Translations under genes and position numbers: made by a program | Sequence record: PZ386965.1 | Source of the DNA: a phage | Strand: one strand, 5' to 3' | Length of the DNA: 64,000 bases | The notes under the pieces: generated by a model | Databases searched by the model: none | What the model was told of the DNA's origin: nothing | What the model saw: the letters and a program-made list of their open reading frames with translations, nothing else | In this document: positions 49,297 to 51,510 of the stretch, piece by piece | How positions within the stretch are numbered: position 1 is the stretch's first letter | How the letters are laid out: every line of letters begins with the position of its first letter

Positions 49297-49304
49297 TTTA
49301 TACA

Positions 49305-49337
49305 AAAAAGCCCCAACCTTTCGGAAGGGGCTTTATA
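49305..49337 (-). terminator. rho-independent terminator
   Basis: AGCCCCTTCCGAAAGGTTGGGGCT hairpin followed by TTTTTTG on minus. Confidence 0.75.
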
Positions 49338-49339
49338 CC

Positions 49340-49634
49340 TTGTTGGGGTTTCCACCTACTAGGTAAGTGTTTGTACGAAACGCCGGGATTTGAACCCGGT
49401 TATTAAGTAGTTGACGCTACTCAATATTTTTAAAAGGCCATATCTCGACCATATCCGAACGTTCCGTCAAAAACGCTACTCGGCTTACGGCAAAGATATT
49501 TCCTCGAATCGTTAATTAGGTGCGCCGTTTCTGCTGTGATGTAAGGGGATATTAACAAATCGTAAAGATTTATTAAGACCAGTCCTTACTCAGGGAACAT
49601 CAGTCCGACGACTTGCCGGTAGCGACCCGGCTTC
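49340..49634 (-). ncRNA. candidate structured stable RNA region with tRNA-like T-arm
   Basis: ~300 nt non-coding, GC-rich; CCGGG-TTCAAAT-CCCGG T-arm-like hairpin at 49392..49410; no full cloverleaf found. Confidence 0.3.
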
Positions 49635-49979
49635 TTATTTTGGCATATCATCAATTTGCTCTCGACGCCGACGCCATAGATTAATCGCTTCATAAACACA
49701 TTCAGCATTTGGTATATGGCGACAATAGTATAGTGATTCGCGTTTCTGGAACCGATGTTGTAATGGAATTTCGTTTAAAAGGTCTTTACGGTCAAAGTAT
49801 TCAAAACTAGTTAACCCGGAACGGTTTTTAAGAAACTTCCAATGTCCGAATTCATTTTTAAAATAAACGTAATCAGCGTGTTGATATAACGAATTAATCA
49901 ACCGGTCGGAAATAACTGTATCTTGTTCGTTAAAATAAAACGTTAAATCATGAACTACTAAGTAAACATTACCTTTCAT
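49635..49979 (-). CDS. hypothetical protein adjacent to tRNA genes
   Basis: ATG with GAGGAAAA RBS; track ORF trimmed because its 5' end overlaps tRNA-Arg. Confidence 0.5.
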   Translation of the reverse strand: MKGNVYLVVHDLTFYFNEQDTVISDRLINSLYQHADYVYFKNEFGHWKFLKNRSGLTSFEYFDRKDLLNEIPLQHRFQKRESLYYCRHIPNAECVYEAINLWRRRREQIDDMPK

Positions 49980-49997
49980 ATTTTCCTCACTTAAAGT

Positions 49998-50074
<77 letters not shown>

Positions 50075-50080
50075 AATATA

Positions 50081-50154
50081 TGACCCAGACCAGATTCGAA
50101 CTGGTAACCTTTCCCTTATGAGGGGACTGCTGCTAACCATTGAGCTACAGGGCC
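50081..50154 (-). tRNA. tRNA with CAU anticodon (Met or lysidine-Ile)
   Basis: Hand-folded: D-arm TAGCTCAATGGTTAGC, anticodon loop CTCATAA, T-arm ACCAG-TTCGAAT-CTGGT, acceptor with one mismatch. Confidence 0.7.
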
Positions 50155-50250
50155 TAAATAACTTTCTATTATGAAAGGCACTTGAGGGAGCACCTTTGGT
50201 AATAGAGGGTAGATTAATAATAACACATAATTCTTAAAGCAAATTACGTT

Positions 50251-50541
50251 TTACCGTACCATATTAATGTAGTTATATTCAATGCAACGTAATTTCAAAG
50301 GGTTCTTGAAAATATCATATTCAAGAGGGCCTGATTCAGTTTCAATAAAGAAATCAAAGTTCACACTATTAAATTTGCGGTCTTCCCAAAGTAATTTAAC
50401 CTGTGAAGATGAACGGTCGACGTAAACCTTTTCAACCTCAAAGTTAGTCAGAATACCGTAGTCATCGACTAGTGCTTTAGCTGCACGTCGGTCACTTTCA
50501 TATCCATTCTCAACGGATTTTACCTTAGCATAAAGAATCAT
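50251..50541 (-). CDS. hypothetical protein
   Basis: 96-aa ORF. Confidence 0.5.
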   Translation of the reverse strand: MILYAKVKSVENGYESDRRAAKALVDDYGILTNFEVEKVYVDRSSSQVKLLWEDRKFNSVNFDFFIETESGPLEYDIFKNPLKLRCIEYNYINMVR

Positions 50542-50900
50542 GAATGTTCCACCACTTCGAAGGTATGAGCATCAACAATATGATACCAGTCAAAATTTTC
50601 TTCTGCGTTTTTATAAATTTCGCGAAGAGCATCCACAGTTTTTCCTGTAGCAACAAGGTCGTCAATACCACCAAGAGGATAACAGTCATAACCAGCAAAC
50701 AGAAGGAAATTAATAGTTTCTGTAGGTTCTGGATGCAGTGTACCATTGTCATCGACTACTTCAAAGAACATATAACCAGGCGATTTAGTTTTAATCCAAG
50801 CCCATGCTTGAGCCGCTGAATCAAATGGTCTGCGTATCAAACGACAATCAGTGTCTTTAGAAGGATTTGCTTCAAAATCCGCATATACATGATATTTCAT
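50538..50900 (-). CDS. hypothetical protein
   Basis: 120-aa ORF. Confidence 0.5.
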   Translation of the reverse strand: MKYHVYADFEANPSKDTDCRLIRRPFDSAAQAWAWIKTKSPGYMFFEVVDDNGTLHPEPTETINFLLFAGYDCYPLGGIDDLVATGKTVDALREIYKNAEENFDWYHIVDAHTFEVVEHS

Positions 50901-51107
50901 TTACTCACCTTTTGCAATTTTATCCATAACGATAGCGATTAAGCCGATTAGAAATGCTACTACCAATGAGATAGAATTTTCGGTTGTTGTCAGTAGTCCG
51001 CAAATGAATCCTACAAACATCGAAAAACTAAAAGCCATTGAAGCAATTACTACAGCAACATTACGAATCAGTTCAGCGCGTTTCATTTTATTTCTCCATT
51101 TACTCAT
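50901..51107 (-). CDS. small membrane protein
   Basis: Two hydrophobic segments. Confidence 0.5.
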   Translation of the reverse strand: MSKWRNKMKRAELIRNVAVVIASMAFSFSMFVGFICGLLTTTENSISLVVAFLIGLIAIVMDKIAKGE

Positions 51108-51152
51108 TTGTTTTGATAGGACTACTATAACATAGTCCTATCGGCATGTAAA
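51108..51152 (-). promoter_or_regulatory. early promoter / stem-loop cassette (high-identity copy)
   Basis: TTGATAGGACTACTATAACATAGTCCTATCGGCATGTAAAC. Confidence 0.55.
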
Positions 51153-51156
51153 CTAC

Positions 51157-51444
51157 TTACAGAAGAGTTTTTGCAATAATTTTAAGTTGAGCTACAGAAA
51201 TATGCTTAGCTTTAAACAGTGCGGTCTCTTCAGCCGGAGAGATAACAATAGTAGCGCCATCTTTCTTAGCAGACCATCCATCCCCTAAGTAAACAGTACC
51301 TTTTACTTCTTCGCCGTCAACCAGACTAATCATTGGTTTACCCTCACGGCCTTTGTTTGCTTTAATAACTTCGGAAGTAAGGGTTGCTTCGGTCAGAGTA
51401 GAAACGTTAGCAACAGGTGATATAAATTCTTTATAGGTTTTCAT
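51157..51444 (-). CDS. internal head protein (capsid-targeting N-terminus; ipI position)
   Basis: MKTYKEFISP start; 95 aa; adjacent to 57B as T4 ipI. Confidence 0.7.
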   Translation of the reverse strand: MKTYKEFISPVANVSTLTEATLTSEVIKANKGREGKPMISLVDGEEVKGTVYLGDGWSAKKDGATIVISPAEETALFKAKHISVAQLKIIAKTLL

Positions 51445-51460
51445 TTTATTTCCTTGAGGT

Positions 51461-51510
51461 TGTTTATTTGATAGGATGATAGTAACACACCATCATCCTT
51501 ATGTAAACCA
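51461..51510 (-). promoter_or_regulatory. early promoter / stem-loop cassette
   Basis: AGGATGAT..ATCATCCT inverted repeat, GTAAAC element. Confidence 0.5.

Follow-up and report, generated by a model that had tools for sequence, protein, structure and literature searches.

The 64,000-nucleotide (nt) stretch of phage DNA analyzed here (sequence record PZ386965.1; referred to as the window) represents a T4-type phage of the Mosigvirus kind, with 97.6% identity to phage JN02 and a close relative, G53, classed as Mosigvirus. The segment at positions 49340..49634, next to two transfer RNA (tRNA) genes, encodes the minus-strand orthologs of T4 rnaD (species 2 RNA) and T4 rnaC (species 1 RNA). We put at about 0.85 the probability that this identification holds together with the reading that both RNAs would be co-transcribed and excised as in T4, and that rnaC would be a tRNA mimic, matured by the host route and with a body formed by a loop-loop contact.

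Orthologs of T4 rnaD and rnaC

BLAST matched the segment to about 800 phage records, with 89-91% identity to the Tequatrovirus records RB33 and RB3 and 88.9% to a T4 genome record. The matches fall on annotated rnaC/rnaD features in RB33, RB3, RB7, RB27, RB55, and T4 (NC_000866), the last annotated as 'small, stable RNA; species 1 RNA' and 'species 2 RNA'. The same labels, species 1 RNA and species 2 RNA, are carried by the matched features of X03016, the original record of the T4 tRNA region. The rnaC homolog aligned over its full length and is identical to T4 at 135 of 137 nt (98.5%), while rnaD (120 nt aligned) is about 87% identical to T4 and 99% identical to Mosigvirus G53. The gene order is as in T4: tRNA genes, rnaD, short spacer, rnaC, trailer hairpin, and terminator, all on one strand. 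At the level of sequence, BLAST identity settles the family membership.

Relative to T4 rnaC (NC_000866 70908..71046; X03016 4741..4877), the strand, order, and predicted fold are the same; the T loop is UUCAAAU here and UUCGAAU in T4, the long arm has one U-to-C change here, and the base before C1 is A here and U in T4. T4 rnaD (NC_000866 71053..71171; X03016 4615..4734) shares with the copy described here the 5' hairpin, the closing stem, the distal-arm type, and the position upstream of rnaC. Both RNAs are already known, being annotated in T4 and some RB phages; the T4 species have been known for about 50 years and were sequenced in the 1970s. The original prediction, made for this segment from its letters alone, had offered a stable small RNA like the species beside the T4 tRNA genes as one possibility, which proved correct, but it had assumed a single element where there are two.

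The RNA boundaries were transferred by alignment to the annotated features of T4, RB33, and RB3 and to X03016, in which species 1 RNA runs exactly from C1 to the discriminator U (...CGUUUCG-U, 137 nt) and species 2 RNA ends in CCA. The features are as follows.

49519..49638, minus strand: rnaD homolog (species 2 RNA), 120 nt, 5' end placed by alignment to T4
49615..49631, minus strand: rnaD 5' hairpin GCCGG-GUCGCUA-CCGGC, closing pair covarying
49520..49612, minus strand: rnaD rod, closed by GUCGUCG (49612..49606) with CGGCG-C-AC (49527..49520), distal arm variable
49512..49518, minus strand: spacer UAAUUAA between rnaD and rnaC, 7 nt, from the alignment
49375..49511, minus strand: rnaC homolog (species 1 RNA), 137 encoded nt from C1 to the discriminator U, boundaries as in X03016
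49505..49511, minus strand: rnaC acceptor-like stem, 5' strand CGAUUCG, pairing with 49382..49376
49375..49382, minus strand: rnaC acceptor 3' strand CGUUUCG and discriminator U (49375), from pair counts and RNAalifold
49435..49504, minus strand: rnaC long arm in the D-arm position, stem AGG/CCU and four more stems, from RNAalifold and the minimum free energy fold
49465..49470, minus strand: apical loop UUGACG of the long arm, first loop-loop partner, from pair counts
49401..49426, minus strand: rnaC hairpin 2, stem of 8-10 base pairs (bp), with the 6-nt loop CGUCAA (49416..49411) as second loop-loop partner
49383..49399, minus strand: rnaC T arm CCGGG-UUCAAAU-CCCGG, from the sequence, stem pairs 119/133 and 120/132 covarying

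The segment, noted earlier as markedly richer in GC than its flanks, is richer than the window as a whole (0.447 against a mean of 0.371), but not dramatically so, since 0.7% of 295-nt windows are as GC-rich. The perfect CCGGG-TTCAAAT-CCCGG hairpin is present; it has the sense of a T arm when the minus strand is read, and it lies at 49383..49399, about 10 nt from the 49392..49410 first given. The T-loop motif by itself (11 nt, at most one mismatch) has 5 matches where 3.9 are expected and is within chance; its significance therefore rests on folding and homology. Minus-strand folding, proposed earlier as a check, gave z = -5.0 against shuffles for the whole segment, -4.92 for rnaC, and -3.49 for rnaD.

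The other proposed check, a search for known RNA families, found no match. In 49340..49640, Rfam 15 gave no family at gathering thresholds, and cmscan at E<=10 gave no tRNA match and only noise (E 0.9 to 8). ARAGORN detected only the two tRNAs at 49998..50154, with no tRNA in the segment and no transfer-messenger RNA (tmRNA). Zero matches to the Rfam tmRNA models were found in the segment at gathering thresholds or at E<=10. Both rnaC and rnaD appear to be without an Rfam family.

Among the matched records, the RNAs are annotated only in T4 and several RB phages. In most deposited genomes of these phages, the closest relatives among them, the region is blank, or short 'hypothetical protein' coding sequences (CDSs) lie over rnaC/rnaD. 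With records blank or mis-called and no Rfam model, annotation pipelines will keep missing the two RNAs.

It had been noted that the roughly 300 bp from the terminator to the open reading frame (ORF) ending at 49635 hold no convincing ORF, and this was borne out: only ORFs of 25-42 amino acids (aa) occur there. We give next to no chance to the explanation that the segment encodes small proteins, although ORFs of 34-42 aa exist and a CDS is annotated over it in G53 and dozens of other records. The 42-aa ORF (49558..49430) spans the rnaD/rnaC junction, a junction that is lacking in genera with only one of the two RNAs, the substitutions are compensatory in RNA helices, and T4, RB3, and RB33 have RNAs and no CDSs annotated there. 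Coding potential was rejected: no conservation of the short ORFs was seen from genus to genus, and the substitutions follow the pattern of RNA helices.

Conserved fold and loop-loop contact of rnaC

Covariation-supported structure was sought in homologous regions and found. We compared 30 distinct rnaC homologs from ten genera (Tequatro-, Mosig-, Dhaka-, Karam-, Winkler-, Teguna-, Gelderland-, Kanagawa-, Moon-, and Marfavirus) and Citrobacter phage Ursula. The length is 136-140 nt in all 30. RNAalifold and separate pair counts agree on an acceptor stem, a long arm, hairpin 2, and a T arm in a cloverleaf-like topology. Over the 30 homologs 92.7% of the cells pair and 17 pairs have changes on both sides; none of 500 shuffles reached the observed values, and slid controls gave 32-51%. 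Acceptor pair 3 is A-U in 11 homologs and G-C in 19, and pairs 4 and 5 are U.U in 28/30 and U-A and C-G in Tegunavirus. Compensatory pairs are numerous in the 70-nt long arm (RNAalifold), and all 8 core pairs of hairpin 2, labelled 'pot. stem-loop structure' in X03016, show both-side changes.

The acceptor pairing first suggested, CGGAACG with CGTTTCG, can be drawn, but it shows no compensatory change and falls below all 500 shuffles. It was rejected in favor of the 5'-terminal CGAUUCG; CGGAACG sits in the apical stem-loop of the long arm.

The fold makes rnaC a tRNA mimic, with an acceptor/T minihelix and with a long arm and a hairpin instead of the D and anticodon arms. The earlier suggestion of a tRNA-mimic element thus describes the rnaC half of the segment. 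In common with canonical tRNA (RF00005), rnaC has a 7-bp acceptor stem formed from both ends and abutting a 5-bp T stem, a 7-nt UUCRAAU loop, and one discriminator base, and it occurs among tRNA genes. It differs from canonical tRNA in its 137 nt, in having neither a D arm nor a 7-nt-loop anticodon arm, in two acceptor U.U mismatches, and in being undetected by ARAGORN or by the tRNA model at E<=10.

A decayed tRNA gene (pseudogene) with insertions, also considered in the original prediction, would account for the canonical T arm, the 7-bp acceptor-like stem, the location among tRNA genes, and the fact that no tRNA detector (ARAGORN, Rfam) recognizes rnaC. We leave this explanation a very slim chance: the sequence is 98.5% identical between Mosigvirus and T4 and is kept over about ten phage genera with compensatory changes in every helix and in the loop-loop pairing, the length is conserved, and in T4 the RNA is abundant and stable (PMC9697503). 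An ancient tRNA origin of rnaC is possible.

The hexamers UUGACG (49470..49465) and CGUCAA (49416..49411) are exact reverse complements. The pairing between these two loops is complete in 30/30 homologs, with slid controls at 16-50%, and it holds in the group of Ursula, Melville, PEi20, and Marfavirus despite an otherwise unrelated long-arm sequence. We detected two independent compensatory changes at different positions: Tegunavirus has UUGAUG/CAUCAA, and Marfavirus has UUGGCG/CGCCAA. When IMG/VR was scanned with a degenerate pattern, only 22 loci came back, all on large T4-like contigs and none spurious, and these 22 held no loop variant beyond the Marfavirus type. Covariation among the homologous sequences shows the loop-loop pairing, and we infer its geometry. 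Hairpin 2, the 6-bp loop helix, and the apical stem together make about 21 bp of helix layers and the remaining long arm about 24, and an asymmetric 3-4-nt bulge (GUAG; UAA/UGA in the other type) lies where the long arm would turn back. These similar layer counts and the bulge at the turn make an intramolecular kissing contact, giving a two-helix bundle, plausible as a model; alternatively, the contact may join two rnaC molecules.

The acceptor/T-arm part of tRNA is also borrowed by the tRNA-like domain of tmRNA, YrlA, mascRNA, and the gammaherpesvirus tRNA-like RNAs, mimics that are processed or stabilized by RNase P, RNase Z, or the CCA enzyme. There is no sequence or model similarity between rnaC and any of them: the YrlA cmscan match falls on the true tRNA genes, and the mascRNA match (E=8.4) covers only the 17-nt T arm. 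To our knowledge, a loop-loop body of the UUGACG/CGUCAA type occurs in none of them.

rnaD, neighboring genes, and distribution

In the set of 19 distinct rnaD homologs, the closing pair of the 5' hairpin is A-U in 14 and G-C in 5, the closing stem GUCGUCG / CGGCG-C-AC is invariant (19/19), and the internal segments are conserved. The distal arm has three unrelated sequence versions (the T4/Mosigvirus, T2, and Dhakavirus types), each forming a hairpin. rnaD would be an RNA of its own, shaped as a rod, that begins with the 5' hairpin and has the tRNA-like 3' end ...GCGC-A-CC(A).

T4 rnaD starts 1 nt after the CCA of tRNA-Arg and ends in ...ACCA, whereas here a 114-aa ORF is inserted and the end is ...ACCU. 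The 3' end reads ...GCGCACC-U, with U in place of the A of the T4 CCA. Among the 19 homologs ACCA is found only in T4 and RB3, ACCG in 11, and ACAG in 5. With no encoded CCA, the terminal A, or CA, would need post-transcriptional addition, and the varied 3' ends may fit repair or completion by the CCA-adding enzyme. At the 5' side, 346 bp of ORF lie between rnaD and tRNA-Arg. The rnaD gene is orthologous, yet its 5' maturation must differ from that in T4.

The neighboring features are as follows.

50154..50081, minus strand: tRNA with anticodon cat, from ARAGORN and Rfam
50074..49998, minus strand: tRNA-Arg(tct), from ARAGORN and Rfam
49635..49980, minus strand: 114-aa ORF, phrog_3355, between tRNA-Arg and rnaD
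49353..49369, minus strand: conserved trailer hairpin CACUUAC-CUA-GUAGGUG, 3' of rnaC
49304..49334, minus strand: intrinsic terminator GCCCC..GGGGC with a U-run, ending the tRNA/stable-RNA transcription unit

Two tRNA genes precede rnaD and rnaC here, against eight and the segB homing endonuclease gene in T4. The cat-anticodon gene (50081..50154) was called tRNA-Met by ARAGORN, but 73/74 of its positions are identical to the annotated tRNA-Ile of T4. Judged by this likeness it is probably an AUA-reading isoleucine tRNA rather than a methionine tRNA, with a CAU anticodon that is presumably modified and so reads AUA. The tRNA-Arg(tct) is identical to that of T4 at only 44/75 positions.

The stop codon of the 114-aa ORF lies within the first 4 nt of the rnaD homolog. 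The ORF is missing in T4, RB33, and RB3, where rnaD begins 1 nt after tRNA-Arg. T2-type phages and wV7 carry an ORF in a similar place, with a C-terminus that differs. It has no Pfam match, and its PHROGs match is only to phrog_3355, whose function is unannotated. Both edges of the inserted DNA read CCAA (CGACCAA/CTTT...ATGCCAA/AATAAG), and a phrog_3355 gene was also seen beside the tRNA array of a Karamvirus. The insert resembles a small cassette, mobile or recombining, with tRNA-gene ends as its target. The SegB homing endonuclease of T4 is reported to recognize a conserved motif of the T-psi-C stem-loop of tRNA genes (PMC2330249). The DNA of the rnaC T arm (49386..49396) carries this T-psi-C motif (GGTTCAAATCC), so in mixed infections SegB might also act on rnaC as a secondary target.

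The terminator noted earlier is present as a hairpin with a T-run, and its position is corrected to 49334..49304, minus strand; G53 and X03016 have a terminator annotated at the homologous position. A simple scan missed it because its stem has an internal mismatch. That scan made a single terminator-like call in this region, at 49615..49640 on the plus strand, where a T-rich run follows the antisense of the rnaD 5' hairpin. The T4 late-promoter motif TATAAATA does not occur on the transcribed strand from 49300 to 51500, and the sigma-70 promoter scan gave nothing above chance. In the trailer hairpin a T4 G-C pair is A-U here, according to the alignment, and the hairpin is kept in Dhakavirus genomes in which rnaC is deleted.

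In Karam-, Gelderland-, and Moonvirus, rnaC is placed like a tRNA, with a tRNA gene on either side at a distance of 4-9 nt. In Winklervirus it lies inside a tRNA array (a tRNA gene 9 nt downstream and another about 85 nt upstream), and in Ursula a tRNA is directly upstream. tRNAs also adjoin rnaC in Tegunavirus, unannotated in the record. In Kanagawavirus (PEi20 and Kosakonia phage 305) no tRNA gene was found within 500 nt of rnaC.

The two RNAs are inherited independently. Dhakavirus CLB_P2 and IME08 have rnaD only, and rnaC is precisely missing, with rnaD ...GCGCACCG joined straight to the trailer hairpin (AACACTTGCC...), while Dhakavirus ABTNLsp5 has both. The reverse case, rnaC without rnaD, was seen in Karam-, Teguna-, and Gelderlandvirus and others, including most non-Escherichia genera. 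BLAST of 5,426 complete E. coli genomes detected no homolog, and the conserved pattern of the 3' half had no exact match when each GTDB species of bacteria and archaea was represented by one genome; a host origin was not supported by these searches.

Proposed maturation and role

The T4 RNAs have been described at the RNA level. One study detected RNAC and RNAD and assigned them to the late RNAs, and a discrete stable rnaC RNA of about 140 nt was shown, for T4 only, by Northern blot with an RNAC probe (PMC9697503). Eight tRNAs and the species I and II RNAs derive from one primary transcript of about 1.75 kb, which terminates beyond the gene for species I (PMC2330249). By analogy with T4, rnaD and rnaC would form the last part of the operon and be transcribed together with the tRNA genes, up to the terminator at 49334..49304. 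The homology with T4 further suggests that processing of the transcript would release two stable RNAs, one of about 120 nt and the other of about 140 nt. Mature T4 species 1 RNA is presumably 140 nt long, a length that would equal 137 nt plus CCA.

RNase P, 3'-trimming nucleases, and the CCA-adding enzyme recognize an acceptor/T minihelix with a discriminator base. Since rnaC has a 12-bp acceptor/T minihelix of this kind and a discriminator U, it is most likely matured and stabilized through the host tRNA-processing route. RNase P would cut before C49511, the 3' end would be trimmed to U49375, and a non-templated CCA would be added. A CCA after rnaC is encoded in none of the homologs, in which the next bases are ACAAA or UCAAA. 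The acceptor stem with T stem-loop is a model substrate of RNase P, and T4 precursors without CCA are known (PMC11143913). The loop-loop pairing would close the rnaC body into a compact two-helix bundle, or join two molecules, and the compact fold would be expected to stabilize the RNA.

After CCA addition rnaC might also be aminoacylated and be used in, or interfere with, translation or amino-acid transfer. The acceptor/T minihelix, the discriminator U, and the presumed CCA end agree with such charging, as this is the part of tRNA bound by several synthetases and EF-Tu. A chargeable rnaC nonetheless has a slim chance in our view: there is no anticodon arm, ARAGORN finds no tmRNA-like tag or ORF, and the acceptor pairs (C1-G, G2-C, R3-Y, and two U.U) match none of the E. 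coli identity sets known to us.

Several observations weigh against the reading of rnaC and rnaD given here or limit it. The acceptor stem has its two central U.U mismatches conserved in 28/30 homologs, and rnaC is scored by neither ARAGORN nor the Rfam tRNA model. The T loop is UGCAUGC in CIP9-type Enterobacter phages and the 6-nt GUGCAU, not UUCRAAU, in Erwinia phage Virsaitis27, so that T-loop-specific recognition is not universal; the T-stem is retained in both, indicating that the T-loop sequence itself is not essential to the rnaC family. The loop-loop covariation consists of two events and cannot separate intra- from intermolecular pairing. For rnaD the support is weaker than for rnaC, as double changes occur at only five pairs and the fold is weak in the T4, T2, and Dhakavirus variants (z -0.75 to -1.0). 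A T4-type rnaD 5' end is impossible here because the ORF now separates rnaD from tRNA-Arg. Either RNA is missing from some genus, which argues against an indispensable role. As for a decoy role, reviews and recent papers call the function of the RNAs unknown, and our literature search found no paper assigning a function to rnaC or rnaD.

Our best guess for the role is that rnaC would act in trans as a non-decoding tRNA look-alike, occupying or diverting a host tRNA-binding factor in a host-dependent and non-essential way; it is possibly a tRNA decoy. Such a role is compatible with the loss of either RNA and with a convergent rnaD single-nucleotide polymorphism (SNP) on a semi-permissive host, the same rnaD SNP having arisen in every line when a T4-like phage was evolved on E. 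coli ECOR34 (PMC12685909). The analogy for a trans role is with phage tRNAs that neutralize tRNA-targeting defenses, as stated in the title of one paper (PMC11464382). The most far-reaching version, in which rnaC would represent an uncatalogued phage tRNA-mimic family of at least ten genera of T4-like enterobacterial phages, locked by a kissing contact onto an acceptor/T minihelix and serving in trans to divert or inhibit a tRNA-binding factor of the host (a tRNA-directed defense nuclease, for example, or a tRNA maturation enzyme), is quite unlikely in our estimate.

The main rival is that the RNAs have no function in trans. They would serve in cis as punctuation that recruits RNase P and 3' nucleases and shields the upstream tRNAs and mRNA from 3' exonucleases, and rnaC and rnaD would accumulate merely as stable by-products. 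In agreement with this, the RNAs lie at the 3' end of tRNA arrays or inside them and are co-transcribed with the tRNAs, either can be lost in whole genera (rnaC in Dhakavirus CLB_P2 and IME08; rnaD in Karam-, Teguna-, and Gelderlandvirus and others), and about 50 years have passed without a function being found. We nevertheless consider it unlikely, because Kanagawavirus rnaC has no tRNA gene within 500 nt, the constant length of 136-140 nt and the covarying 6-bp loop-loop contact exceed the needs of a 3' stabilizer, and a convergent adaptive SNP was found in rnaD (PMC12685909).

Taken together, the two RNAs were rediscovered as an item of a genome scan, with a corrected anatomy of the segment, evidence of an annotation gap, and a structural model as by-products. 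The comparative picture bears on the decades-old question of the function of the T4 species RNAs. If the family of trans decoys is real, rnaC would be a host-range determinant, and the purpose of T4 species 1 RNA would be answered.

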